A stretch of 64,000 bases of DNA from Bacteroidota bacterium (GTDB lineage Bacteria; Bacteroidota; Bacteroidia; Chitinophagales; Chitinophagaceae). The position numbers were made by a program, and so were the translations under genes. This document shows, piece after piece, positions 19,165 through 60,704 of the stretch (within the stretch, counting starts at the first letter, position 1; each line of letters opens with the position of its first letter). The notes under the pieces were generated by a model. It searched no databases and had not been told where the DNA came from. It was given only the letters and a program-made list of their open reading frames with translations. The stretch is from the NCBI GenBank assembly GCA_013288745.1, contig JABDBG010000003.1:1207-65206 (forward strand). The letters are read 5' to 3'.

Positions 19165-21714
19165 ATGGACAACAATTTTTCAGCACAAGTAAAAGAAATA
19201 ATTTCTTATAGTAGGGAAGAAGCTTTGAGATTGGGCAATGATTTTATTGGCACGGAACATTTAGTGCTGGGATTGATCCGCGATGAAGAAAACACCGCCA
19301 TCAAAATATTAAAATCTTTAAACATTGATCTGCAGGAACTACGCAAAGAAATTGAAGTGGCAGTAAAAGATAAGACAGGAAAAAATATTGCTAACATCAA
19401 TTCATTGCCGCTTACAAAGCAGGCAGAGAAGGTGATACGCATCACTGTGCTTGAAGCTAAAGCGAGCAAAAGCGCCGTAGTAGAGAGTGAGCATTTAATG
19501 TTATCTATCTTAAAAAACAAAGAAAATATCGCAACACAAATTTTAAATCAGTTTGATGTTGATTACGATGTATTCAAAAATGAACTGGGCTTTGTAACAA
19601 GCACGCCTCCTGCAGCAGAATTTTCTGAAGAAAATGAAGATGATTTTGATGAAGAAAGGAAACAATATGGTTCACAACAAAAAGCGCAACGCGGTGGTGC
19701 TAATGCACCAAAAACAAAAACTCCGGTGCTTGATAATTTTGGTAGAGATATCACTCGTTTAGCTGAAAGCGGTTCTTTAGATCCTATTGTAGGTAGAGAA
19801 GTTGAAATTGAAAGGGTATCTCAAATATTGAGTCGCCGTAAAAAGAATAACCCGATCTTAATTGGTGAACCTGGTGTGGGTAAAACAGCCATTGTTGAAG
19901 GTTTGGCATTAAGGATCGTGCAGCGCAAAGTAAGTAGAGTACTATTTGATAAAAGAGTTGTATCACTTGATCTGGCAGCGTTGGTTGCCGGTACTAAATA
20001 CCGCGGACAGTTTGAAGAAAGAATGAAAGCGATCATGAATGAATTGGAAAAGAACAGAGATGTTATTTTATTCATTGATGAGATCCATACTATTGTTGGC
20101 GCAGGTGGTGCCAGCGGTTCTTTGGATGCTTCTAACATTTTCAAACCTGCTTTGGCAAGAGGTGAATTACAATGTATCGGTGCCTCTACTTTAGATGAAT
20201 ACAGAATGCATATTGAAAAAGATGGTGCACTAGATCGTCGTTTCCAAAAAGTAATTGTTGATCAGCCTTCAGTAGAAGAAACAATACAGATCCTTACAAA
20301 TATTAAAAGCAAATACGAAGATTATCACAATGTAACGTACAGCGAACAGGCTATTGATGCTTGTGTTAAATTAAGCGAACGTTATATGACCGATAAGTTG
20401 TTGCCCGACAAAGCCATTGACGTAATGGATGAAGTTGGTGCAAGAAAACATATAAAAAACATCAATGTTCCTAACGAAGTAATTGAGTTAGAAAAGAAGA
20501 TTGATGAGATCAAGCTTGAAAAGAATAAGGTGGTAAAAAGCCAGCGCTTTGAAGAAGCTGCTTCATTAAGAGATTCTGAAAAACGTTTACAGGAAGAATT
20601 GGAAAAAGCTAAGCATGATTGGGAAGAAGAAAGCAAGAACAAACGCTTCCCTATTGAAGAAGAAGATATTGCTGAAGTAATTAGCATGATGACGGGTATC
20701 CCTGTTAAACGTATGGTTCAGGAAGAAACAGAAAAATTACGCCGCATGGCGGATGATCTGAAAGATGCTGTAGTTGGTCAGAATGAAGCGATACAAAAAG
20801 TAGTGAAAGCTATTCAACGTAATCGTGTTGGATTAAAAGATCCTAAAAAACCAATTGGTACATTTATATTCTTAGGTCCTACAGGTGTTGGTAAAACAGA
20901 ATTAGCAAGATCATTGGCTAGATATATGTTCGACAATGAAGATTCTTTAATCAGGATCGACATGAGTGAATACATGGAAAAATTCACTGTGAGTCGTTTG
21001 ATCGGTGCGCCTCCGGGATATGTTGGCTATGAAGAAGGTGGACAGCTGACTGAAAGGGTTAGACGTAAACCATACAGTGTTATCTTGTTGGATGAAATTG
21101 AAAAAGCGCATCCGGATATCTATAATATTTTATTACAGGTATTAGATGACGGACAATTAACAGATGGATTAGGCAGAAAGATCGATTTCAAGAATACCCT
21201 TATTATCATGACATCGAATATTGGTGCCCGTCAGTTAAAAGACTTTGGTGATGGCGTTGGTTTCGCTACCGCAGCAAGAGCTTTGAATGCTGATGAAAAT
21301 AATAAGGCTGTAATTGAAAAAGCTTTGAAACGTACATTCAGTCCTGAGTTCCTAAACAGGATCGACGATGTTATTATCTTTAACTCATTAGACAGAACAA
21401 ATATCTTTGAGATCATCGATATCTTAATGAGAGGCGTAATGAAACGTTTGGTTAACCTTGGTTTTGGAATGGAACTATCAGAAGAAGCGAAGAATTTTAT
21501 CGCGGATAAAGGATATGATTCTCAATTCGGGGCAAGACCATTACACAGGGCTATTCAAAAATACCTGGAAGATCCTTTAGCGGAAGAGATACTAAATATG
21601 AATGTAAAAGCTGGCGATACCTTGATCGCTGATCTTGACAAAGAGAATGAAAAAATAAAATTCACTTTGAAAGACACAGAGAAAAAGAAAGGTGCTAAAT
21701 CTGCCGAAGCATAA
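19165..21714 (+). CDS. clpC: ATP-dependent Clp protease ATP-binding subunit ClpC
   Basis: Clp_N repeats, two AAA+ modules ([16 protein letters not shown]), UVR motif, GAPPGYVGY; ATG at 19165 preferred over TTG at 19141. Confidence 0.95.
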
Positions 21715-21729
21715 AATAATAAATAAGGT

Positions 21730-21762
21730 AAAAAGCCCTCCGAAAAAATCGGAGGGCTTTTT
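21730..21762. terminator. Rho-independent terminator after clpC
   Basis: AAAAAGCCCTCCGA-aaaaa-TCGGAGGGCTTTTT. Confidence 0.9.
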
Positions 21763-21801
21763 CTTTTTGAAGGATGAAATAATTAATGGATTTTTGCAGT
21801 A

Positions 21802-22485
21802 ATGAAAAATAGCATCATCACAATTGATGGATACTCCTCTTGTGGAAAAAGCACTTTGGCCAAACAGCTGGCTAAGAAGTTAGGCTATGCTTACATTGAT
21901 AGTGGTGCTATGTACCGGGCCATTACCCTATTTTTTCTTCGCCACCATATTGATTATACGGATCACAGGCAAGTAGTTGATGCCTTAACTGATATCACTA
22001 TTGAATTCCACCCTAACGAGGTATCACATCAATCTGAGATTTATTTAAATGGAGAAAATGTTGAGTACCTGATCAGAGATATGATCATTGCTGATAAAGT
22101 AAGTGAAGTGGCTGCCATTAAAGAAGTAAGAGATTTTGCAGTAGCGCAACAGCGATTGATGGGCAAAAAAAAGGGAATCGTTATGGATGGGCGTGATATT
22201 GGCACAACTGTATTCCCCAACGCGCAGCTTAAAATATTTATGACCGCAGACAGTGCTGTAAGGGTGGAGAGAAGATTTAAAGAACTCTATGAAAAGAATC
22301 CTAATATAACTATTGAAGAAGTAAAGAATAACCTCGAAATGCGTGATTATATAGACTCTAACAGAGAGATCAGCCCTTTACGCAAAGCTGATGATGCAGT
22401 AGTGTTAGATAATACTAACCTTAGCATGGAACAGCAATTAAAATTTGCCGAAAATCTTTTAAAAGAAAAAATAGGGGCCGTTTAA
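21802..22485 (+). CDS. cmk: Cytidylate kinase
   Basis: IDGYSSCGKST, DSGAMYR, MDGRDIGT, RDYIDSNR. Confidence 0.96.
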   Translation: MKNSIITIDGYSSCGKSTLAKQLAKKLGYAYIDSGAMYRAITLFFLRHHIDYTDHRQVVDALTDITIEFHPNEVSHQSEIYLNGENVEYLIRDMIIADKVSEVAAIKEVRDFAVAQQRLMGKKKGIVMDGRDIGTTVFPNAQLKIFMTADSAVRVERRFKELYEKNPNITIEEVKNNLEMRDYIDSNREISPLRKADDAVVLDNTNLSMEQQLKFAENLLKEKIGAV

Positions 22486-22532
22486 AATTCTGTCCAATTC
22501 GATTATAAATTACTTTCCGGATCATATATCCC

Positions 22533-22555
22533 ATTAAAAAAGCCCCTCAATATTG
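22533..22555. terminator. Left half of the disrupted cmk/gldJ terminator, including the left target-site copy CAATATTG (22548-22555)
   Basis: ATTAAAAAAGCCCCT+CAATATTG; rejoined with 32984-32998 it gives a near-perfect palindrome with A6/T6 tails. Confidence 0.85.
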
Positions 22556-22614
22556 GGAGAATACTGACTTGGTGGGACAAATATTAAAATAAGGCCGTTT
22601 GGCCTTATTTTTTT
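22556..22614 (+). repeat. Left terminal inverted repeat (59 bp)
   Basis: GGAGAATACTGACTTGGTGGGACAAATATTAAAATAAGGCCGTTTGGCCTTATTTTTTT is the exact reverse complement of 32917-32975. Confidence 0.96.
22586..22614. terminator. Terminator-like hairpin inside left TIR
   Basis: AAAATAAGGCC-GTTT-GGCCTTATTTT; T7 run on the + strand (cmk direction), T4 on the - strand (OLD direction). Confidence 0.75.
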
Positions 22615-22642
22615 AGTATAAATCTGAAATTCTATATAAAAC

Positions 22643-24400
22643 CTATAATAACTTAAGTTGGGTGAGTATGGTAGAGATTAAATGAAAACATATTTCTTCT
22701 TCAATCGGATCTTGTATACCATGTTCTTTTAATAATTTTTCAAACTCATTAGCTATCCCTACCTTAGAAATCGGTGTTTTTTTATCTAAAAGTGAATCTG
22801 GTGCATAGTAAAATTTTGTAAATATTTCTTCGGCTATTGCGTTATATTTTTTGGGTTTTTCGACTTGACTAAAATCGGAAACGATTTCTGCTGCGTCTTT
22901 TTGAGTTATTATCTTTTCGCTAACAAGATAATCTAAATACTTTTTTGCAGCTTGGACATATAGATTATGAGGAAGTAGGTCTTCTATAGAAACAGCACCT
23001 TCCTGAATACTACTAATCTTAAAAACAGAAAATTTCTCTTTATTTCCGATAGCACCTTCTTTTTTCTTAACGGTATTATGAATATGAGTATCGTCATCGT
23101 CCATTAATACTATTAAAGGTCTTTCTTCGCTAATAAGTATCTGAACCATTGCGGGTATATTGGCTATAGATCCTGCATCAATTATCGATAATAAATCTGA
23201 AGAAAGAGAAATCGTTCCCTTACTAATAAAATAATTTAATAAGGCTCCAATATATATCCTATCTTCTGGCCCTTCAACCAATAAGGACTTATCTGCATAA
23301 AAGAAACTGTCAGATATATCAATCCCCAATGAAGTCCTTAATGGACGCCAATTATGCAAATATGGCTTGGGATTCAATATTGTACCTTTAGTAACACTTT
23401 TTTCGATAACCCATACATTGTTTGGATGCATTCTATTAATAGAAAATGGAGAATGAGTCGTATAAAAAACAACATGTTCTTTACTAATTTCCTCTAACAG
23501 TTTTACGAAATCTTTTTGTCCAGTAGGATGTAAAGAAAGAGCTGGTTCATCAAATAAAAAGATCGTATTCTTTAACCGTAGCTCAGTAAGGAATATTTTA
23601 TTAATTAAGAAGGAGAAAAAATATTGAAATCCTGTACTTCTTTGTTCAAAAAAACCGATTTTGTGGTAAGCATCATTGAAATATGCGGTAAATATACCGT
23701 CATGAGAATCAATTTTTAATTCTAAGCTATGTTCTTGATTGTAATGTTTATTTAATAATGCACTAATATTTACAGAAGCTCTTTCTCTTATTTCGATCAT
23801 TTGATTGAAAGAACGCATACTAAATTTTTCAATCTCGGCTTCTGTTATACCACCCAAAGCTAGAAGTCTAAAAAATGAATGAAATTTAGGATTCTCTCTA
23901 TCCTCCAAAAATTCTTTATAGTCAAATGGAGAAATAATAAAATCCTCTCTTTCATATAATTCTATATATGGTAAGAGTTCAAATAGTTCTTTTTCTAACT
24001 TATTCCAGTCCGCTGGAAATCTTGATTGTTCTTTACCAAATGTAAGTCCACCAACTAGTTGTAATTGTAGTATATTATTCTCCTTTATATTTTTATTAAC
24101 CGTTACCTGTAATTTTATAATGGCACTTAAATCATAACTTCCGTTTTGAACTAGAATTTTTACAGCACTCTGTTTTAACCTAGTAATATCAGGTACATCA
24201 AGTTCATATTCGCCAATTATTGCTGTATTATCTGATAATTCGATATCACTAGCAGATCCACCTAACAAGGAAATTGCTTGTAAAATATTGGATTTCCCAG
24301 ATTCATTTTTGCCAATTAAACAATGCAAATTGGAAGAAGGAACCAATTCAAGGTTCTTAATAGATTTAAAATTCCTAATGTTTATTTTTTTTAGCCTCAT
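22643..24400 (-). CDS. OLD-family ABC-ATPase/TOPRIM nuclease (stand-alone)
   Basis: Walker A IGKNESGKS, signature-like RSTG, Walker B/D-loop FLFDEPALSLHP, H-loop TTHSPF, TOPRIM LVEGPED and LMDDD, SIEDLL. Confidence 0.88.
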   Translation of the reverse strand: MRLKKINIRNFKSIKNLELVPSSNLHCLIGKNESGKSNILQAISLLGGSASDIELSDNTAIIGEYELDVPDITRLKQSAVKILVQNGSYDLSAIIKLQVTVNKNIKENNILQLQLVGGLTFGKEQSRFPADWNKLEKELFELLPYIELYEREDFIISPFDYKEFLEDRENPKFHSFFRLLALGGITEAEIEKFSMRSFNQMIEIRERASVNISALLNKHYNQEHSLELKIDSHDGIFTAYFNDAYHKIGFFEQRSTGFQYFFSFLINKIFLTELRLKNTIFLFDEPALSLHPTGQKDFVKLLEEISKEHVVFYTTHSPFSINRMHPNNVWVIEKSVTKGTILNPKPYLHNWRPLRTSLGIDISDSFFYADKSLLVEGPEDRIYIGALLNYFISKGTISLSSDLLSIIDAGSIANIPAMVQILISEERPLIVLMDDDDTHIHNTVKKKEGAIGNKEKFSVFKISSIQEGAVSIEDLLPHNLYVQAAKKYLDYLVSEKIITQKDAAEIVSDFSQVEKPKKYNAIAEEIFTKFYYAPDSLLDKKTPISKVGIANEFEKLLKEHGIQDPIEEEICFHLISTILTQLKLL

Positions 24401-24479
24401 AGGTGAGTTTAGTTTGGTATTATACCAGTAAAAATAAGCTGATTATACTAAATCAAGATATTTATAGCTTAAAAAATAG

Positions 24480-24644
24480 ATGAAGCATCTGGTTACTAGC
24501 ATTAGGATCAAACAATTACAAATTAATGATGAACAAGATCCAATAAGAAAGCAAAAATTAGAAATGGAGTTAGAAATATTACAAAAACAACAGAATATAG
24601 AAGCTTTAAGGAAACGGCTTGAACAATTAATAAAAAAACCTTAG
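24480..24644 (+). CDS. Small coiled-coil protein (54 aa; absent from the ORF track)
   Basis: MKHLVTSIRIKQLQINDEQDPIRKQKLEMELEILQKQQNIEALRKRLEQLIKKP*; divergent from OLD. Confidence 0.5.
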   Translation: MKHLVTSIRIKQLQINDEQDPIRKQKLEMELEILQKQQNIEALRKRLEQLIKKP

Positions 24645-24696
24645 AATACTGTTTACTATTTCATGGTTATTGTTTATTCTGGAATAAACAATAACC

Positions 24697-24915
24697 ATGA
24701 ATTGTCAAAAATGCGAGCAAACAGAAAAATATAAAGTCTTATACTATAATTTTTTTCAAAAGATATTTAAAGAAATACATGATTTTGATAAGACCAATAT
24801 TAATAAACTCAATGCCATATCTAATCACATAAAAGATACTCTTATTATGCATGGTGAAATTAATGCCGAATTCGCTAATTCACTATTTCATATACATAGA
24901 GATACTGACCAGTAA
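24697..24915 (+). CDS. Hypothetical protein (N-terminal CxxC)
   Basis: 72-aa ORF MNCQKCE; A-rich leader; 3' end overlaps the convergent ORF by 41 bp. Confidence 0.45.
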   Translation: MNCQKCEQTEKYKVLYYNFFQKIFKEIHDFDKTNINKLNAISNHIKDTLIMHGEINAEFANSLFHIHRDTDQ

Positions 24916-25135
24916 TCGTATTATCAAAAGTTAATTGATAATCGGTATGCAATCTTTGTAAGACTGCTATGGCTTCATTAGCACTGTTAAAAAACCACAC
25001 AGACATTTTAGGTTTTAATTTAGGTAATTGTGCAACACCTGTTACTAATCCAAACTGAATAAAATCTGTACCTGCTCTATTTCTAATTTCGTTTAGTATT
25101 AATTTACTATCGTCATATATTTCTTGTGCCGTCAT
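24875..25135 (-). CDS. Hypothetical protein
   Basis: Likely start MTAQEIYDD at ATG 25135; 86 aa. Confidence 0.6.
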   Translation of the reverse strand: MTAQEIYDDSKLILNEIRNRAGTDFIQFGLVTGVAQLPKLKPKMSVWFFNSANEAIAVLQRLHTDYQLTFDNTITGQYLYVYEIVN

Positions 25136-25210
25136 TATTGTCTTATTTAAGAATGAAAATAATACTTTTTTTAAAAATTTAAAGCTCGTTTGACAAAAAT
25201 ATAACATATG

Positions 25211-25786
25211 CTATTCGCTTACTTCTAAAAAACATATTTCACCTTTGTATCCTAAACAATTTCCATATGTATCATGTACTTCCCTAGTAGAAATACCAAT
25301 TATAGTTGATCCAGAATAATACTTTTTATTCTCATCTTTGGCTCTACTCAAATTGATATTGTCTTTATAAGCGTATTGCCGATTAATTGAATTGTCTACT
25401 TTACTATTCTCTGTTATGTAAGGTACCACGCCTACAACACCATTATTATAGGTATAATATTCATTTGCATAGAGCAAAACCCATTTTTTTCCAGCAGGTA
25501 CAGTATAGTTTGATGAGCTGTAATGTCCAGATCCACCATATTCGTCTTGTGAAAGATGAACAACACTACTTTGCATACCCCAATTTAATTTTACAATTCT
25601 TTCACCATCTTTCAGCTCCTGACCTTGAAATAATTCTCTATTAACTTTTACAGGTTCTTCCACTTTTGGAGCTGGTGTTAAGTTAGAAATTGTGGTATCA
25701 CTTGGTGAATTGTTAGGTGGATTTACTGATTGATTACATGAACTAATGATTAGAATTAGTACAAATAATTTTGCAAAGGATTTCAT
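25211..25786 (-). CDS. Hypothetical lipoprotein
   Basis: MKSFAKLFVLILIISS-C lipobox from ATG 25786; Pro/Asn linker, then a beta-rich domain. Confidence 0.75.
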   Translation of the reverse strand: MKSFAKLFVLILIISSCNQSVNPPNNSPSDTTISNLTPAPKVEEPVKVNRELFQGQELKDGERIVKLNWGMQSSVVHLSQDEYGGSGHYSSSNYTVPAGKKWVLLYANEYYTYNNGVVGVVPYITENSKVDNSINRQYAYKDNINLSRAKDENKKYYSGSTIIGISTREVHDTYGNCLGYKGEICFLEVSE

Positions 25787-25820
25787 ATTAGATAATTGAT
25801 TTATTGAATAAAGGATGTTT

Positions 25821-26432
25821 TTATCTTTCATTAAGCTGTCCACTAAGATTTAAATCGGCTATAGCAGAAGGAGTATCACGCTCTAATGGTGATAGTGGAT
25901 GTGGGTTACCAACCCATGTTACATTACTAGGAAGTAGCGGTATACGTAGTTTGTTATTTAAAACAATTACTTGTAGATAGTATCCAGAATCACATGATTG
26001 GAAATATGGTGCTGGTTGAGCTGGATTGATATATTGCAATGTTATGTAGCAGCTGTTGGTATCAGTTAACGGGCCGTCCCAATGTGTATTTATAAGTAAA
26101 TAGTTTTTAGTACTGGTTGGTCTTTGGAGAAAAGTCACACTTATTTTTGAAATATTACCAGCTGAATCACCCTCACAAATAAGGGAATTAGTTGCACTAT
26201 CCCACTTAGCCGTATTAGCTGATAGATTAATGGAATCTTCATGATAAGAGTTAATTGGAACATTGAATATGGTATATGTTGTCCAATGTGATAGCGGGAT
26301 CGTGTCACCAGCTGGAATATTATTGTGTGCAGTGTCTGTGTTATTAGGTGGTGATGCAGGGTGGTTAAGCTTTTTACAGCTCAATATGGCAACGGTTGAA
26401 ATAATAATGATAATAGCTAATAGTTTTCTCAT
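25821..26432 (-). CDS. Hypothetical lipoprotein
   Basis: MRKLLAIIIIISTVAILS-CKK lipobox; Pro/Asn/Thr linker. Confidence 0.78.
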   Translation of the reverse strand: MRKLLAIIIIISTVAILSCKKLNHPASPPNNTDTAHNNIPAGDTIPLSHWTTYTIFNVPINSYHEDSINLSANTAKWDSATNSLICEGDSAGNISKISVTFLQRPTSTKNYLLINTHWDGPLTDTNSCYITLQYINPAQPAPYFQSCDSGYYLQVIVLNNKLRIPLLPSNVTWVGNPHPLSPLERDTPSAIADLNLSGQLNER

Positions 26433-26459
26433 AGTTAAAAATTTTCGCTAAGATAGTAA

Positions 26460-26481
26460 ATTATAGCACATGTGCTATAAT
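26460..26481. promoter_or_regulatory. Perfect 22-bp palindrome, candidate XRE operator
   Basis: ATTATAGCACATGTGCTATAAT in the 80-bp divergent gap between the lipoprotein and XRE genes. Confidence 0.7.
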
Positions 26482-26512
26482 AATTACGTGCCAAATAAAT
26501 TCATTTTGGTAA

Positions 26513-26779
26513 GTGAAAAAAGCAACTAAATCTAAACGGGTTTTAATCTTTGATGAGGAAGGACTTAAGCTATTGGCTAAACACTTAAAAAAAGTGAGAA
26601 TGGCCAAAGGTTATTCCCAGGAAGAATTGGCTTATGAATCAGGAATGACCTTATCTCAAATTGCAAGGATCGAAACGGTCAAGATTAATCCAACCGTTAG
26701 TACAATATTTAAGTTGGCCCGTACTTTACAAGTACCAGTATCGGATCTATTCGATTTCAAACTACCCAAAGAAAATTAA
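26513..26779 (+). CDS. XRE-family (HTH_3) transcriptional regulator
   Basis: LKKVRMAKGYSQEELAYESGMTLSQIARIETVKINPTVSTIFKLARTL. Confidence 0.92.
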   Translation: MKKATKSKRVLIFDEEGLKLLAKHLKKVRMAKGYSQEELAYESGMTLSQIARIETVKINPTVSTIFKLARTLQVPVSDLFDFKLPKEN

Positions 26780-26824
26780 TATAAGTTGTTGTAGTTTCTT
26801 TGTATGTTTGAAAAAATTCCTACT

Positions 26825-27097
26825 ATGAAACGCATAATCACCCTAGTACTATTATCATTTCTATCTTATTGTTCCTACGCTCAAAAAGCAGATAGTACTC
26901 ATGCTGTTCACCATGTAACTCATGCAACAACGATACATCATTATAAAAATCATGAAGGCCATACAGTACAATCTCCAACCTATTACGACAAAGCACCAGA
27001 AGGAGCCACAGCAGTATGTGGAGATGGTACGTATAGCTATAGCGAATCTCATAGAGGTACTTGCTCGCACCATGGTGGTGTCAGAAAATGGCTATAG
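26825..27097 (+). CDS. Exported DUF3761-domain protein
   Basis: Signal peptide from ATG 26825; GATAVCGDGTYSYSESHRGTCSHHGGVRKW. Confidence 0.82.
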   Translation: MKRIITLVLLSFLSYCSYAQKADSTHAVHHVTHATTIHHYKNHEGHTVQSPTYYDKAPEGATAVCGDGTYSYSESHRGTCSHHGGVRKWL

Positions 27098-27147
27098 TTG
27101 ATTCTATTATAATTTCGTCATTTTTTAACCCTAAACATATAATCCTT

Positions 27148-27381
27148 ATGTCCGCATCTTACGTAGAACACAGACCCCATGCCTCAAGTGAGCATGTCCC
27201 TACTTCCCATTATGTTGTAATTGTTGATGGAAAAGAAGTTGGAGGTTCATTCTCAACCCAAGCTAAAGCAAAAGATTATGCTTGTGACGCAAATCACCAT
27301 CCTGTACATGTGGCTAGACAACGCCACCTGCAAGACAGGAGTCAACCTGCTCATTGGAAAGTAGATCAATGTAAAAAGTAA
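27148..27381 (+). CDS. Small His-rich hypothetical protein (weakly DUF2188-like)
   Basis: Start MSASYVEHRP at ATG 27148; FSTQAKAKDYA; followed by a terminator. Confidence 0.65.
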   Translation: MSASYVEHRPHASSEHVPTSHYVVIVDGKEVGGSFSTQAKAKDYACDANHHPVHVARQRHLQDRSQPAHWKVDQCKK

Positions 27382-27386
27382 TGTTA

Positions 27387-27418
27387 TAAGGGGGCTTATA
27401 ATAGCCCCCTTAATTTTT
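27387..27418 (+). terminator. Rho-independent terminator within the cargo
   Basis: TAAGGGGGCT-tataat-AGCCCCCTTA followed by ATTTTT. Confidence 0.8.
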
Positions 27419-27439
27419 CATTTATCAAAACTTAAACTT

Positions 27440-27736
27440 ATGTCACATTTCTTAACAAGAGTTGTTCTCCACAAAACAAATAATTTGGTACATCCTGATT
27501 ATACAGCTCTCCACACTGCCATGGAAGATGGTGGATTTTCAAGGCAAATCTTAGGTAGTAATGGTACAACATACCATCTACCAGCTGGAGAATATTTGAT
27601 AAAAAGTGATTTAACTCTGTTAGAAATTCATCATCTAACTAAAAAGATTATCGCTTCTATTGATGAAGATTATGGAGTTGTTTCTGTTAGTATAGTAATA
27701 GAAGATTTAATGCTTACTGGGCTTATAGCGGTTTAG
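27440..27736 (+). CDS. GhoS/DUF2622-like protein (ferredoxin/Cas2-like fold, putative endoribonuclease)
   Basis: FLTRVVLH...DYTALHTAMEDGGFSRQILGSNGTTYHLPAGEY matches the recalled DUF2622 pattern. Confidence 0.7.
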   Translation: MSHFLTRVVLHKTNNLVHPDYTALHTAMEDGGFSRQILGSNGTTYHLPAGEYLIKSDLTLLEIHHLTKKIIASIDEDYGVVSVSIVIEDLMLTGLIAV

Positions 27737-27948
27737 CGATTTGGGATCTTTTGGTATCAATATTCATTTTACTCGTATCAACTTCACAATACCAATTTTT
27801 ACCACATAGTGCCAAACATACTCCTTTGATATACTTTATTATTTTTTTCATATTAATAAATATATCATACTGTGTGAATAAGTAAACTCTAAAAGAATCT
27901 CTACACTTAAATACTTTTCTTAAATTCATATTACTAAAATCAATTCTT

Positions 27949-28242
27949 ATGGCATACTTAAGAAAGAAAAAAGTAGGAGCTTCAAAAGTTATTAAAAAGA
28001 GTAACGGATATTTAGTGTTCTCTGATAGTGGTACATCTGTTCATCGTTGGATGGCAGAAAAGAAATTAAAAAGGAAGTTAAAACCTGGTGAAGTTGTTCA
28101 CCATAAAGACAGAAACAAACTTAATAATTCACCTACTAACTTACATGTTTTTGGTAGCCAAAAAGAACATTCGAATGCTCATAAAAAAGATGCAGCAAAA
28201 TATGGTTGGGATTATAGTCTGAAGGGGAAAAGGAGAAAATAA
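27949..28242 (+). CDS. Stand-alone HNH endonuclease (HNH_3 type)
   Basis: VHRWMAE...EVVHHKDRNKLNNSPTNL...EHSNAH; very basic termini. Confidence 0.85.
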   Translation: MAYLRKKKVGASKVIKKSNGYLVFSDSGTSVHRWMAEKKLKRKLKPGEVVHHKDRNKLNNSPTNLHVFGSQKEHSNAHKKDAAKYGWDYSLKGKRRK

Positions 28243-28262
28243 TTACAATACTAACCGTACTC

Positions 28263-28958
28263 ATGATTCTAAAAAAATATAAAAATCAATTATTCCAATT
28301 CTTAAAAGATCATCCTATTGGATTCAATAATTTTGAATTAATTGAAAGCGAAAATGCATTAAAACTTGAATATAAAAACACTCCATTTTTCTTTGTTATA
28401 AATGGTGATGTTGATTTTGATTTATTCTATTGCAGTTGTATTAGCTTTCAAAATGGGTATCCACATATTGATTTATCACGTGGAAATTCAGAGCCATTTA
28501 GTGATATTATTGGACAACTAAAATATTGGATCAATAATGACCTTGCGGCTTACAATGAGGAACGTGAAGCCATAGACTTATGGGAAGAGTATAATAAGGG
28601 TGAAACCTTACTTGACATTGAGCAAATCGATTTCGGTGATAAAACAAATTTTAGCATTGATGAACAGAAACAAATTGCTCTATCAATTAATGAATTAAAA
28701 TCCTTAATCCAAGCAAATTTTGCTATTAATTCGGCTCAACTCGCTCTAGTAAATGCAAGACTAGATTACTTAATAGAATCTTCTCAACGATTAAATAGAT
28801 TTGATTGGAAAAGTATAGCAGTTAATACAATTATTTCGATTTCCGTAGCTATGTCATTTGATACCCAGCAAGGAACTCAATTATTTGAATTATTTAAGCA
28901 AGTGTTTAGAATTGTACCAGCTTTATTTCACGTAAATTCAGGTATTGTTATCCCTTAA
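28263..28958 (+). CDS. Hypothetical protein
   Basis: 231-aa ORF 20 bp downstream of HNH; helical C-terminal half with a hydrophobic segment. Confidence 0.75.
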   Translation: MILKKYKNQLFQFLKDHPIGFNNFELIESENALKLEYKNTPFFFVINGDVDFDLFYCSCISFQNGYPHIDLSRGNSEPFSDIIGQLKYWINNDLAAYNEEREAIDLWEEYNKGETLLDIEQIDFGDKTNFSIDEQKQIALSINELKSLIQANFAINSAQLALVNARLDYLIESSQRLNRFDWKSIAVNTIISISVAMSFDTQQGTQLFELFKQVFRIVPALFHVNSGIVIP

Positions 28959-28993
28959 TTAATTCAACTATAATTAACCCCTTAATTAAACTT

Positions 28994-29293
28994 ATGGAAA
29001 CAGTAGAATCTTTGCTTAAGGAATTGGAAGTTATATCCAATAATATTGTGGAAAAATACGTCCAACAATATATAGAAAGTCTTACTGATAAGCCAGACTA
29101 TTCTAAAGATGATTTTTTTAAAGCCATATATCCTGACCTTAATAAAGAACTAACCCAAGCAGGAGTAGATACTTTTCATAAATCTATAATCAACCATGTG
29201 GTTTATGATCCGATGAAATTGACAATTGGTGTTCAAAGAATAAAATTAGAATCACTAGAAAATTTGATGAGTAGATTAATCAATAAGGAGTGA
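28994..29293 (+). CDS. Hypothetical protein
   Basis: 99-aa ORF with a typical AT-rich leader. Confidence 0.65.
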   Translation: METVESLLKELEVISNNIVEKYVQQYIESLTDKPDYSKDDFFKAIYPDLNKELTQAGVDTFHKSIINHVVYDPMKLTIGVQRIKLESLENLMSRLINKE

Positions 29294-29602
29294 TTAATCT
29301 GGCAATAATGACATTGATGGTATGTTTTGTAAAGCTACTAAGGAGTACTCCGCTTCTTGTTTTAGTTCTTGGGTTAATTCATTATAGCCTAACGTTAATT
29401 TGTTCAAGTATTTATCAATATCTAAACAAAGGGTTTGTACTGTAGGTTCAATTACTGTTAGAAATACATTCGGATCATATGGACAGGTCATTATTTCATC
29501 AGTAATCTCAATTCTTAATAAAAATGCATCCCCGTATTTAGTCGCATTTAAGAAATTAACAGATAAATTATTGATGATAGAGATTTTCTCTGATTTGGTC
29601 AT
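29294..29602 (-). CDS. Hypothetical protein
   Basis: 102-aa ORF abutting the convergent ORF stop-to-stop. Confidence 0.6.
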   Translation of the reverse strand: MTKSEKISIINNLSVNFLNATKYGDAFLLRIEITDEIMTCPYDPNVFLTVIEPTVQTLCLDIDKYLNKLTLGYNELTQELKQEAEYSLVALQNIPSMSLLPD

Positions 29603-29694
29603 AATTTGCTTTTTTTACAATATAAGACCAACAAATATAATAATCACATTATTTGGTATAAAGTTCCCGATAGTCACTTAATATAACTCTAGTT

Positions 29695-30381
29695 ATGCCC
29701 CAATTTAATACTGAAAATCTATTAAAAGTGTCCTTGCCAGCATTTATACTAATTGGTGTAACACAATTAGCATCCTATTATTATCAATTCAAAATTCCAA
29801 TTTTTGATTATTTAGATTTCACGGAAATAATTGTGTTTTTTCTTGGAAATATTTCAATGTACATTTCCATAATGTACTTTATGAGTTTTATTCTTTTAAA
29901 AAATACTCCTAAGTATGTAATTGTTCCTTCTATAAGTTATGTATTACTTGAAATTATTGTTGTAATAAATGGTAATATAGAATATAGGATCATTAGTACT
30001 GATACATTAATAATCGCAGTTTTTGGTATACTTATCTTTTTTCTATTAGCTATAAATAAGAATAAAATTAAAATTCCAGTTTTTACTGGAAATGAAAATT
30101 GGATTATGGTGTATGCCACTCTGGTTATATGCTTACTTATAATTAGTCTATCTGGGTATTTTAATGCTATTCAAACTAAAAGTAGACATCCGTATAAAGG
30201 AACTTCAATCTTTATTGATGGTAAAGAAATAAAATCAAATGACACTTGTTATTTTGTTGGAAAGACGCATAACTATGTTTTCTTTTTTAATGAAAAAGAC
30301 TCTACTTCTTTAATATATCCCATAAGTAAAATTGATAAAATTATTTTTAAAGCAAAGGATTCTCATTTTTCCTTTTGGTAG
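29695..30381 (+). CDS. Hypothetical multi-pass membrane protein with a soluble C-terminal domain
   Basis: About 5 hydrophobic segments, then YFVGKTHNYVFFFN. Confidence 0.75.
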   Translation: MPQFNTENLLKVSLPAFILIGVTQLASYYYQFKIPIFDYLDFTEIIVFFLGNISMYISIMYFMSFILLKNTPKYVIVPSISYVLLEIIVVINGNIEYRIISTDTLIIAVFGILIFFLLAINKNKIKIPVFTGNENWIMVYATLVICLLIISLSGYFNAIQTKSRHPYKGTSIFIDGKEIKSNDTCYFVGKTHNYVFFFNEKDSTSLIYPISKIDKIIFKAKDSHFSFW

Positions 30382-30492
30382 GAATATTCATAAAAGTAAA
30401 TTATTAACCTTTTATAAAATCATTCCAAGCATCTGTATATACATTTATTTTATACAAAAATGGAGCATTTATGAAAAAAATATTACAATAAA

Positions 30493-30524
30493 TTTGGAAT
30501 ACAATGTGTTCCGTTATATATTTG
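30493..30524 (+). promoter_or_regulatory. Promoter of the RHH-transposase unit with an overlapping palindrome
   Basis: -33 TTTG (30493-30496), 20-bp spacer, -7 TATATTTG (30517-30524); GGAATACA-A-TGTGTTCC (30496-30512) spans the spacer. Confidence 0.7.
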
Positions 30525-30541
30525 TGATATAAAATTCTATT

Positions 30542-30727
30542 ATGGAAAATGATGAAGCTTTAAGATTACGAATAAGTGCAGACATGAAAGCTGAATTACA
30601 GAAGTTAGCCGATAAAGAAAAAAGAAAGCTAAGCGATTATATCCGTTTGGGATTAGAACAAATGATAGCCCAATCTAAAACTTCTGAAATAACTAAACAT
30701 AAAGAAAAGGGGAAAAACAACAATTAA
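30542..30727 (+). CDS. Ribbon-helix-helix (CopG/Arc-like) DNA-binding protein
   Basis: LRLRISADMKAELQKLADKEKRKLSDYIRLGL: alternating beta strand plus two helices. Confidence 0.85.
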   Translation: MENDEALRLRISADMKAELQKLADKEKRKLSDYIRLGLEQMIAQSKTSEITKHKEKGKNNN

Positions 30728-30792
30728 TTTTTTTTAATCAAAATGGAATACAAAGGAATTCAAAGAGATACATACAAAGGTTAACACCACTA

Positions 30793-47537: not shown

Positions 47538-47571
47538 AATAAAAATGCCGCAATATTGCGGCATTTTTATT
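47538..47571. terminator. Perfectly palindromic terminator downstream of the SPFH gene, centred on CAATATTG
   Basis: AATAAAAATGCCG-CAATATTG-CGGCATTTTTATT, a 34-bp perfect palindrome. Confidence 0.85.
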
Positions 47572-57695: not shown

Positions 57696-59150
57696 TTAAA
57701 TCGCTTTTACTTCTGCGCAAAGATCCTGTAATACTTTTTTTGCATCGCCAAACAACATAGAAGTTTTCGGTTGAAAGAAAAGATCATTTTCGATACCGGC
57801 ATAACCAGGCTTCATGCTACGTTTATTGACGATCACATTTTTAGCTTGTTCTACTTCCAATATCGGCATACCGTAAATTGGTGAAGCGGGATCATTTTTT
57901 GCGGCAGGATTCACAACATCATTCGCTCCCAATATCAATACAACATCTGTTGTTTTAAATTCATCGTTGGCCTGTTCCATTTCTAACAACACATCATAGC
58001 TCACATCTGCTTCTGCTAATAATACGTTCATGTGGCCGGGCATACGTCCTGCTACCGGATGGATCGCATATTTTACTTCAACGCCCTTTTCAGTCAATAT
58101 TTTTTCTAACTCATGACAAGTATGCTGCGCCTGTGCTACGGCCAATCCATATCCCGGAACGATCATTACTTTATTTGCATAGCTCATTACCATTGCAGCA
58201 TCGCTTAAACTAATTTCTTTGTAAGCGCCCTGGTCTTTTGATCCACCGGCTGCCGTCGCTTTATTTCCGCCAAAGGAACCAACCAATACATTCACCAATG
58301 AACGGTTCATCGCTTTACACATCAATATTGTTAATAATGTACCTGCCGCACCTACAAGGATACCGCCTGTTAACATTACTTTGTTGTTGTATAAAAACCC
58401 GCCACATGCCGCTGCAACACCTGTGAAAGAGTTCAGCAATGAAATTACAACGGGCATATCTGCGCCCCCGATTGGTAACACAAATAAAACGCCATATACC
58501 AATGCCAAACCAAGTATGCAATACAATAAATAAGACTGCGTAGGATCGATCACTAAATAGGCCCCTGCGCCTATCGCGATCGCCAACAAAACCAGGTTAA
58601 GAATGTTTTGTCCTGGGAAACTAAAATCTTTCACTTTGCCATTTAACTTACCCCATGCGATCATACTTCCTGCGAAAGAAACGGAACCGATAATTAATCC
58701 GATAACGATAATTAAAACGGTTGGTTTAATAACACTAAGATCAACAAGTGAAAGCATGCTGATATGCATGAACGAAGTTTCTACCGGCGCAAGTATCCTT
58801 GATATATGATTGAATTCAACCAAAGAAATTAAAGCAGCACAAGCACCTCCCATTCCGTTAAACAAACTCACCATTTCCGGCATGGAGGTCATCTTAACTT
58901 TTTTTGCTGATAATGTTCCGACAATTCCTCCGATTAATAAACCGCCGAATATCCATATAAAATTATGAAGATGCTGATGTGTTTCTTCGTTACGATATAA
59001 AAAGATCGTTCCTAAAATTGCTACCGTCATACCAAAAGCTGCGACAAGGTTTCCTTTTCTTGCTGTCGCAGGATTGGATAACATTTTTAGTCCAAGTATA
59101 AATGTGATCGAACCGATCAGGTAGCAAATGGTAAGTAAGTTAAGGCCCAT
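57696..59150 (-). CDS. pntB: NAD(P) transhydrogenase beta subunit
   Basis: MPEMVSLFNG, IGGADMPVVISLLNS, PGYGLAVAQAQ, HPVAGRMPGHMN, GANDVVNP; start set at ATG 59150. Confidence 0.96.
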   Translation of the reverse strand: MGLNLLTICYLIGSITFILGLKMLSNPATARKGNLVAAFGMTVAILGTIFLYRNEETHQHLHNFIWIFGGLLIGGIVGTLSAKKVKMTSMPEMVSLFNGMGGACAALISLVEFNHISRILAPVETSFMHISMLSLVDLSVIKPTVLIIVIGLIIGSVSFAGSMIAWGKLNGKVKDFSFPGQNILNLVLLAIAIGAGAYLVIDPTQSYLLYCILGLALVYGVLFVLPIGGADMPVVISLLNSFTGVAAACGGFLYNNKVMLTGGILVGAAGTLLTILMCKAMNRSLVNVLVGSFGGNKATAAGGSKDQGAYKEISLSDAAMVMSYANKVMIVPGYGLAVAQAQHTCHELEKILTEKGVEVKYAIHPVAGRMPGHMNVLLAEADVSYDVLLEMEQANDEFKTTDVVLILGANDVVNPAAKNDPASPIYGMPILEVEQAKNVIVNKRSMKPGYAGIENDLFFQPKTSMLFGDAKKVLQDLCAEVKAI

Positions 59151-59167
59151 TGTAATTATATTTTGTT

Positions 59168-59201
59168 TCGCGCAAAGTCGCAAAGAAGCAAAGTTGCAAA
59201 A
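59168..59201. repeat. Short tandem octamer repeat (GCAAAG core)
   Basis: cgcgcaaag tcgcaaag aagcaaag ttgcaaaa between pntAB and pntB. Confidence 0.6.
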
Positions 59202-59253
59202 GATTAATTCGTGTAATTAGTGAATAAAAATTTGTGTTATAAGCCTACGCTAA

Positions 59254-59562
59254 TTATTTTTTCTTCTTGAACATTTCAAGCATTCTGTCTGTTACTACAA
59301 AACCACCGACAACATTGATCGTTCCTAAAATAACTGCCAGAAAACCTAATATGATCGCCAATAAATTATCTGACTCCGCTTTACCCATTACGATAATAGC
59401 GCCGATGATCACCACGCCATGAATAGCGTTGGCGCCACTCATTAAAGGCGTATGCAAAACACTCGGTACACGGCCGATCACTTCAATACCTACAAAGATC
59501 ATCAGTATAACGATGTAGATGATTTGCTGGTTATTGGAGATCCATTGAAGAATATCTTTCAT
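59254..59562 (-). CDS. pntAB: NAD(P) transhydrogenase alpha subunit part 2 (membrane)
   Basis: VPSVLHTPLMSGANAIHG, NVVGGFVVTDRMLEMF. Confidence 0.93.
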   Translation of the reverse strand: MKDILQWISNNQQIIYIVILMIFVGIEVIGRVPSVLHTPLMSGANAIHGVVIIGAIIVMGKAESDNLLAIILGFLAVILGTINVVGGFVVTDRMLEMFKKKK

Positions 59563-59579
59563 AAAAAACTATTTATCAA

Positions 59580-60704
59580 TTAAGCAATTAAACTTTTTAC
59601 ACGATCATTTACAATTTCACCATTGTGTGCAATACACGAACCTTTGATCAGGTCATCTTCAAAATTCAAATTGATGTTACCATCTTTATCGATCATCAAT
59701 TGTAAAAAATTCAGGATATTTTTTCCGTATAATTTGCTGGCATCGCTTGGCATATCGGATGCTAATCTTGAATTACCAACAATGCTTACGCCATTATGAA
59801 TAACGGTAGTATCATTTTTTGTAAGATCGGTATTACCACCTGTCGATGCAGCAAGGTCAATGATCACAGAACCATTTTTCATCGCTTCGATCATTGCTGT
59901 TGTAATTAATATCGGCGCTTTTTTCCCGGGAATTTGCGCGGTTGTAATTACGATATCTGCTTTAGCAACGCTTTCAGCGATCTTAGCTTTCTGTCTTTGT
60001 ATAAATTCTTCGCTTTGTTCTACTGCATAGCCGCCTGCTTTACTTGCATCTGCTGCACCTTCCACTTCTACGAATTTGGCGCCTAAGCTCATCACTTCTT
60101 CTTTCACTGCGGGCCTTGTATCAAATACTTCAATAACAGACCCCAATCTTTTTGCCGTTGCGATGGCTTGTAAACCTGCAACACCTGCACCAAGAATTAA
60201 AACTTTTGCAGGAGCAATACTGCCTGCAGCGGTCATGAACATCGGAAAATATTTCGGGTAAACATTTGCTGCTAATAATACCGCTTTATAACCCGCGATA
60301 TTCGCCTGACTACTTAATATATCCATGCTTTGTGCACGTGTTGTACGTGGCAGCATATCCATACTAAATACGCTTAAGCCTTTGCCTGCCCATTCTTTCA
60401 TCAGGCTGGCCGTAAACAGCGGTTGAAAAACACCAACAGCTATCGCGCCTTTTTTCATGCTTGAAATATCAGCATCAGAAAAAGTGTTGAACGATAAAAT
60501 GATATCGGAATTTTTTAATACTTCGGCACGACTGGTTACGGTTGCACCGGCTTCTTTGTACTTTTCATCATTCGCAAAAGCTGTTACGCCTGCGGTAGAC
60601 TCAATGTAAGTTTCTACTTTCCATTTTTTCAGAAGTGTTAGATGTTCTGGTAGTAGCGAAACTCTGGTTTCGGGAGTTGGTTCTTTTAATACACCAATTA
60701 TCAT
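59580..60704 (-). CDS. pntAA: NAD(P) transhydrogenase alpha subunit part 1
   Basis: ETRV, PRTTRAQSMDILSSQANIAGY, GAGVAGL, TTAQIPG. Confidence 0.95.
   Translation of the reverse strand: MIIGVLKEPTPETRVSLLPEHLTLLKKWKVETYIESTAGVTAFANDEKYKEAGATVTSRAEVLKNSDIILSFNTFSDADISSMKKGAIAVGVFQPLFTASLMKEWAGKGLSVFSMDMLPRTTRAQSMDILSSQANIAGYKAVLLAANVYPKYFPMFMTAAGSIAPAKVLILGAGVAGLQAIATAKRLGSVIEVFDTRPAVKEEVMSLGAKFVEVEGAADASKAGGYAVEQSEEFIQRQKAKIAESVAKADIVITTAQIPGKKAPILITTAMIEAMKNGSVIIDLAASTGGNTDLTKNDTTVIHNGVSIVGNSRLASDMPSDASKLYGKNILNFLQLMIDKDGNINLNFEDDLIKGSCIAHNGEIVNDRVKSLIA

Follow-up and report, generated by a model that had tools for sequence, protein, structure and literature searches.

An IS1595-family cargo transposon is located between convergent cmk and gldJ-like genes

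The window, by which we mean the whole 64,000-nt stretch of DNA that was analysed, comes from a MAG of an uncultured soil organism, at 72% completeness. It contains two host genes, cmk encoding cytidylate kinase and a gldJ-like gene encoding an FGE-sulfatase domain, which are read toward each other and between which an IS1595-family cargo transposon is located (Table 1). The element is bounded by perfect terminal inverted repeats (TIRs) of 59 nt that start with GGAGAATACTGAC, and the 8-bp target-site duplication CAATATTG is exact at both of its termini. The first 25 nt of the left TIR (GGAGAATACTGACTTGGTGGGACAA) correspond to the core kept among related elements. The assignment to the IS1595 family was based on the DDE_Tnp_IS1595 domain and zinc ribbon of the transposase, the TIRs with an 8-bp duplication and the passenger genes within the repeats. 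Mechanical repeat finding returned longer inverted arms, of 82 nt with one mismatch. The outer 23 nt of these arms consist of a host terminator half-stem and the 8-bp duplication, and the sole mismatch is likewise part of the host hairpin; the candidate in which the 82-nt repeat belonged to the element throughout was therefore rejected.

Table 1. Features described in the text, with window coordinates unless a locus of a related element is named
Feature	Position or locus	Strand	Basis or remark
cmk, host cytidylate kinase	21802..22485	+	Pfam Cytidylate_kin E 6.1e-66; reads toward the left end of the element
Host terminator, left half	22536..22547	+	AAAAAAGCCCCT; pairs with 32984-32995 when rebuilt
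Target duplication, left copy	22548..22555	.	CAATATTG; exact 8-mer; single in the unoccupied-site contig of run X2
IS1595-family cargo transposon	22556..32975		10,420 bp; boundaries from the rebuilt site
Left TIR	22556..22614	+	59 nt, perfect; repeat search, rebuilt site and comparison with relatives
Left hairpin and T7 run	22586..22614	+	Terminator-like for transcription from cmk; on the - strand, located after the OLD-type gene
OLD-type ATPase-TOPRIM nuclease, outermost left cargo	22643..24400	-	Pfam AAA_15, OLD-like_TOPRIM; reads outward
IS1595-family transposase, 387 aa	30793..31956	+	DDE_Tnp_IS1595 (PF12762) 1.6e-38; Zn_ribbon_IS1595 (PF12760) 1.8e-08
ORF72, outermost right cargo, 72 aa, no family	32687..32905	+	ORF list; reads outward
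Right TIR	32917..32975	-	59 nt, perfect; repeat search, rebuilt site and comparison with relatives
Right hairpin and T8 run	32917..32945	-	Terminator-like for transcription from the gldJ-like gene
Target duplication, right copy	32976..32983	.	CAATATTG; exact 8-mer; single in the unoccupied-site contig
Host terminator, right half	32984..32995	+	AAGGGCTTTTTT; same letters after the single CAATATTG in the unoccupied-site contig
gldJ-like, host FGE-sulfatase-domain gene	33011..34570	-	Pfam FGE-sulfatase 1.5e-37; reads toward the right end of the element
Left-end hairpins of gut Bacteroidales elements	L040:8338-8375; L084:8354-8391; left ends of L041, L083, L048
Short-transposase relatives	L035, L037, L039, L040, L041, L048, L049, L052, L083, L084, L092

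The transposase has an N-terminal zinc ribbon, which is followed by the DDE domain and a C-terminal extension; its NUMOD-like match (0.00099) is weaker than the curated cut-off. The cargo between 22615 and 32916 comprises genes of the OLD-type nuclease, HTH, DUF3761 and HNH kinds together with unknowns. Inside the element, between divergent small ORFs, there is also a palindrome (24660-24701) whose 20-nt arms match perfectly and are separated by 2 nt. A strong terminator-like hairpin (TAAGGGGGC...GCCCCCTTA, -18 kcal/mol) is located at 27387-27412 after the DUF3761 gene group, and marks a module boundary within the cargo.

The genome of origin has one copy of the element, and the TIR sequence occurs in it only twice. 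The search for further TIR copies in 400 genomes of the host's family returned only short chance matches, and no MITE derivatives of the element were seen in its own genome or in those 400. A plasmid collection contained relatives only at 42% identity or less. A second IS1595-family element was found in the same genome (L004:145-2773; G000:C1, transposase at 58859-59770). Its transposase is 43% identical, its inverted repeats are 33 nt long and of different sequence, and a scripted check found no exact 8-bp duplication around it.

The element split a terminator shared by the two host genes

The initial annotation had claimed that the insertion destroyed a host terminator. Removal of the element and of one copy of the 8-mer gave the rebuilt site AAAAAAGCCCCT-CAATATTG-AAGGGCTTTTTT, which forms an A-run/GC-stem/T-run hairpin of -15.0 kcal/mol between the convergent cmk and gldJ-like genes. 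The single mismatch of the 82-nt repeat corresponds in this hairpin to a C.A mismatch of the host stem, within 22536-22547. Natural unoccupied sites were drawn from public soil and peat metagenome contigs of related strains. A contig from run X2 (soil metagenome, related strain) reaches position 22555 and continues with AAGGGCTTTTTTAATA, and thus contains one 8-mer followed by the right half-stem. The longer contigs of runs X4 and X6 joined cmk and the gldJ-like gene without the element, with gaps of 142 and 55 nt, respectively, where about 139 and 60 nt were expected. The search for an unoccupied site in species representatives gave none at the 11 cmk loci that were looked at, which had no gldJ-like gene within 1.5 kb downstream (cmk was present in 35 genomes of the genus). 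Since the rebuilt site and the natural unoccupied site in a related soil strain bear out the claim, it was a real host terminator that was split. The element divided the terminator common to the convergent cmk and gldJ-like genes and doubled its 8-nt loop.

Both ends of the element contain a terminator-like hairpin

The inner half of the 59-nt TIR consists of the sequence AAAATAAGGCC-GTTT-GGCCTTATTTT followed by TTT, which was found at 22586-22614 (+) and as an exact copy at 32945-32917 (-); 0 matches to this sequence were expected in shuffles of the window. This sequence folds into a hairpin of 11 bp, 4 of them G-C, around a loop of 4 nt. Its energy of -13.6 kcal/mol is similar to that of the destroyed host hairpin (-15.0 kcal/mol) and falls within the span of the other terminator-like sites of the window (-10 to -22 kcal/mol); the nearby lon/cmk terminator is stronger (-22.4 kcal/mol). 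An Rfam search over 21500-34000 gave no match at the gathering score, and none on the hairpins.

At both ends the uninterrupted T run (7 nt on the left, within 22605-22614, and 8 nt on the right, within 32917-32926) lies on the inner side, which is downstream of the stem for transcription arriving from cmk or from the gldJ-like gene. The hairpin starts 100 nt past the cmk stop and 65 nt past the gldJ-like stop. When it is read outward, the T tract is interrupted (TTATTTTAATATTT) and the hairpin is located 31 nt past the stop of the OLD-type gene and 14 nt past that of ORF72, these genes ending 28 and 11 nt from the TIRs, respectively. Bacteroidota use intrinsic terminators, and the end hairpins have the corresponding sequence features, a G+C-containing stem-loop with an immediately following U tract, downstream of a gene. 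The initial annotation was therefore correct in placing the hairpin in the inner half of both TIRs, in stating that the long T run faces incoming host transcription, and in stating that the outermost cargo genes read outward and stop just before the TIRs, with which the ORF list agrees.

Related elements insert into the loops of terminator hairpins

A clade with transposases of roughly 380 aa counts 3,305 proteins at E below 1e-60. We compared the element with 15 further elements whose transposases are 60-74% identical, most of them from MAGs of Chitinophagaceae and other Bacteroidota. No left end was found on the contig of L120 and no right end on that of L076, and the contig of the closest relative, L073 (81%), is too short to reach an end. 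All relatives have in common a 25-nt terminal core, GG(G)TATTACTKACANTNNGGGACAA, with termini that read GG(G)TATTAC.... Twelve elements (that of the window and 11 relatives) had both ends on the contig, and an exact 8-bp duplication was present in every one of them. Ten of the 12 rebuilt sites folded as a terminator-like hairpin of the A-run/GC-stem/T-run type in which the duplication forms part of the loop or adjoins it, the exceptions without such a hairpin being L121 and L132. Exact symmetry of at least 9 of 12 flank pairs was observed at 6 of the 12 sites, compared with 0.1% of random positions in the same loci. The stems of the targets vary from site to site, and therefore it is the shape that is common to them and not the sequence.

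More distant relatives, of 35-42% identity (n = 11), have frames of 313-429 aa, most of them 313-328 aa, and also produce 8-bp duplications. None of these 11 short-transposase relatives was located in a hairpin loop. The transposases of approximately 385 aa have the C-terminal extension and the relatives of roughly 320 aa are without it; terminator targeting therefore goes with the ~385-aa clade.

Three co-oriented genes form a conserved core of these elements, namely an ORF of ~50 aa (RHH-like once), the transposase and directly after it another ORF of ~50 aa. This arrangement was seen in L121, L127, L128, L130, L132, L133, L135, L137 and L138, and the cargo beyond it is different in every element.

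Hairpins at the ends of related elements are frequent and differ in sequence

A TransTerm-like scan detected an inward hairpin with a T-rich tail, at most about 130 nt from the terminus, at 19 of the 28 ends of the 16 elements (that of the window and the 15 relatives), and in 9.8% of background windows from the same loci. A strict scan that required perfect stems was positive at 14 of 23 ends and in 1.9% of background windows. Since the 16 elements are kin to one another, these end counts overstate independence. Every one of the 16 elements had a hairpin on at least one end, the right end more often (12/16) than the left (7/12), and nine of the 28 ends had no inward hairpin. The stems at these ends are unrelated in sequence (ATAAGGCC, ATAGAGCC, GGCTCGAA, GGGCTGCA, GAGCAGCTA, GCCTTAGAG, ACTTCTGAT, GCGAC and others), they start 0-24 nt past the motif GGGACAA, and the loop length also varies. 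At two ends, L128 right and L132 left, the GGGACAA core itself forms the stem and is followed by a T run.

In the relatives the hairpins are subterminal and usually different at the two ends of one element, and the repeat extends over ~25 nt. Only in the window is the hairpin inside the TIR, with both ends identical through the hairpin (59 nt). As the relatives have a repeat of ~25 nt, with a separate hairpin at each end or no hairpin, the TIR-borne hairpin is a local state, and the identical ends in the window probably arose from recent copying of one end onto the other. Such copying could also have doubled a chance palindrome of no function. We consider this explanation very improbable, since equivalent hairpins occur in relatives far above background in both scans and some of their pairs show compensatory changes.

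The compensatory changes were seen in small alignments of few, related sequences. Between the window and L031 and L074, G-C and A-U are swapped at two adjacent pairs, and in a second such alignment (L133, L121 and L138) two more pairs are changed on both sides. Some of the 'broken' pairs in these small hairpin alignments are artefacts, as L122 was misplaced by MAFFT, and so was the 3' arm of L121. The alignment of homologous TIRs that had been suggested showed changes on both sides at two pairs per alignment, in a few sequences of close kinship. That stems vary from element to element, with some compensatory changes, argues against a conserved protein-binding sequence, and thus against a transposase site preserved only in its primary sequence, which the initial annotation had named as a possible refutation.

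Some end hairpins resemble the host terminators that were targeted

At the right end of L139 (3050-3160) the interior of the element exactly complements the host half-stem over 13 nt (0 of 300 shuffles), and at the right end of L032 (12290-12400) it does so over 9 nt (3 of 300 shuffles); in both cases a T run follows. These two ends are without a complete hairpin of their own, and the complementarity to the host half-stem means that a hairpin spanning the junction can form, its loop containing the repeat core. The left-end hairpins of two other elements, L122 (5138-5169) and L134 (8142-8178), resemble the host terminator that the element occupies, with GGCCTTTTT and AGGGCTTT as the shared sequences. 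The likeness between hairpins and targets could mean that target terminators were captured, or that targets similar to the element's own ends are preferred.

Resemblance or complementarity at these four ends could also be expected if the hairpin acted at the level of DNA in transposition, as a subterminal structure which the transposase or its C-terminal extension would recognise, or imitated the target, and were not a signal in transcription. That hairpin loops are the targets of this clade, and that the GGGACAA core is part of some of the end hairpins, would fit such a role as well. However, the hairpins are not constant in stem sequence, in the length of the loop or in the distance to the core (0-24 nt), no hairpin is present at a third of the ends, and the two ends of one element usually have different ones, and a protein-binding role leaves the consistently adjacent T run unexplained. 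We therefore regard a purely DNA-level function as improbable.

The end hairpins are predicted to work in both directions, with an inward bias

Among 17 hairpins, the T run was longer in the inward than in the outward direction in 9, equal in 7 and shorter in 1. Hairpins scoring in the outward direction too were found at 14 of the 28 ends. The end hairpins are essentially bidirectional predicted terminators with an inward bias. A neighbouring host gene was present on the contig at 27 ends, and at 21 of these it reads toward the element.

The outward activity predicted for half of the ends raises the alternative that the hairpins simply end, as ordinary terminators, the transcripts of the element's outermost genes, which are the OLD-type gene on the left and ORF72 or the transposase operon on the right; their closeness to the repeats would reflect the compactness of the element, and any effect on host transcription would be incidental. 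The hairpins of the window are situated 11-28 nt past outward-reading cargo genes, the runs of A and T are equal in the 7 hairpins mentioned above, and a hairpin is present at 12 of the 16 right ends, where it follows the transposase and its small ORF, all of which this alternative would account for. It is at odds with the T tract in the window, interrupted outward and of T7-T8 inward, and with the two hairpins whose stem is formed by the repeat core. Four left ends (L032, L122, L132 and L134) are followed by a first internal gene that reads inward, and the hairpin preceding this gene therefore cannot be its terminator; the hairpins at the left ends of L032 and L132 and at the right end of L128 have no outward T tract at all. 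Taking both sides of this evidence, we consider it unlikely that the hairpins serve the element's own genes only.

Discussion

We propose with moderate confidence, from features of the sequence, that the end hairpins act as bidirectional intrinsic (Rho-independent) terminators which insulate the element and stand in for the host terminator that was split. Elements of this clade insert into the loops of host terminator hairpins, and RNA polymerase leaving cmk or the gldJ-like gene would then read on through the half-stem left over from the host terminator and through the 25-nt transposase-binding core. Host transcripts would end at the hairpin of the element, ~50-60 nt beyond the original site. 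With termination at this point the host messages would retain a 3' hairpin, and host transcription would be kept from running antisense into the cargo or from driving the transposase. In the outward direction the same hairpin, with its weaker, interrupted T tract, would end the transcripts of the OLD-type gene and ORF72 before they go antisense into the host genes. If the hairpin ends both host and cargo transcripts in this way, each junction would thus again be a convergent gene pair with one terminator.

The initial annotation had combined terminator targeting and end hairpins into a 'terminator-swap' strategy. What stands of it is that a host terminator was split, that a hairpin of similar strength is present at each end and that the better T run is directed toward the host gene. 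On the other side, 9 of the 28 ends are without a hairpin, relatives that do not target terminators have hairpins, and the hairpin is TIR-borne only in the window. As many of the hairpins are, in addition, symmetric, we infer rather than observe the coupling of targeting and replacement into one 'swap'. The relatives in question include IS1595 cargo elements of gut Bacteroidales, which are not targeted to terminators and in which an inward hairpin with a T6 run is located ~50-60 nt inside the left end (Table 1); the hairpin at the right ends of the gut Bacteroidales elements is without a T run. Because short-transposase relatives have end hairpins without terminator targeting, the feature is not specifically tied to terminator replacement, and end terminators, as predicted here, are more widespread than terminator targeting. 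By analogy with IS200, the first role of the end terminators may have been shielding from outside transcription.

IS200 has at its left end a bidirectional Rho-independent terminator that is described as a protection against impinging outside transcription (PMC4513863). What the two have in common is a terminator hairpin located among the first tens of nucleotides of the element. IS200/IS605 elements differ in having an HUH (Y1) transposase and neither TIRs nor a duplication, whereas the element described here has a DDE transposase of the IS1595 kind, TIRs and a duplication; moreover, the IS200 terminator is present at one end only and IS200 is not known to insert into terminators.

As for target choice, IS1272/TnSha1 (IS1182 family) of staphylococci inserts into hairpins, many of which are terminators confirmed by RNA-seq (PMC4923244, PMC5678879). 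It is likewise a DDE-type, hairpin-inserting element that can carry cargo (sh-fabI). Its transposase belongs to a family other than IS1595, and IS1272 is inserted in the stem, with partial deletion of the target hairpin and without a duplication (PMC4923244), whereas the insertion here is in the loop, with an 8-bp duplication and no loss of host sequence. The passages covered of PMC4923244 and PMC5678879 do not describe a replacement end terminator for IS1272/TnSha1. Group IIC introns use terminator stem-loops as landmarks (PMC7923331). These are retroelements, which insert just after the hairpin through RNA-DNA pairing, and are not loop-inserting DDE transposons. In the IS3 family, the DDE elements IS1397 and ISKpn1 are specific for repeated extragenic palindromes, into the loops of which they insert. 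Their targets form one repeated sequence family, in contrast to the unrelated terminators found here, which are alike only in shape.

Transporter insertion sequences of the IS1595 family have the DDE_Tnp_IS1595 domain and zinc ribbon, TIRs, the 8-bp duplication and passenger genes in common with the present element, the difference being its transposase of ~385 aa with a C-terminal extension that the ~320-aa relatives do not have. End-borne terminators and hairpin-targeting insertion sequences are known elsewhere, and neither was found described for the IS1595 family. The claim that a terminator swap is new to this family agrees with the literature searched on IS1595 and terminators, in which no description of terminator-loop targeting or of end terminators was found.

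A broader and more tentative idea, which we think possible though doubtful in its entirety, is that the ~385-aa clade with its NUMOD-like C-terminal tail uses terminators as safe harbours, recognising them by shape and not by sequence, inserting into their loops and bringing portable bidirectional terminators that silence even 10 kb of defence cargo toward the neighbours. If the hairpins do terminate transcription, they would be a simple way for a transposon to cut its cost. The element would land without breaking genes, repair the one signal that it destroyed and shield its transposase and cargo from host read-through, and the spread of large defence-gene cargos among Bacteroidota without polar effects would be easier to understand. 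Annotators could then search for such elements by a split terminator that contains an 8-bp duplication, insulated insertion cassettes of low impact could be modelled on the natural ends, and the clade would provide a testable case of a DDE transposase that chooses its targets by DNA shape.

A further terminator of the window, at 47538-47571, is unoccupied and reads AAAAATGCCG-CAATATTG-CGGCATTTTT (-19.1 kcal/mol), with the same 8-mer at its centre as the occupied site.
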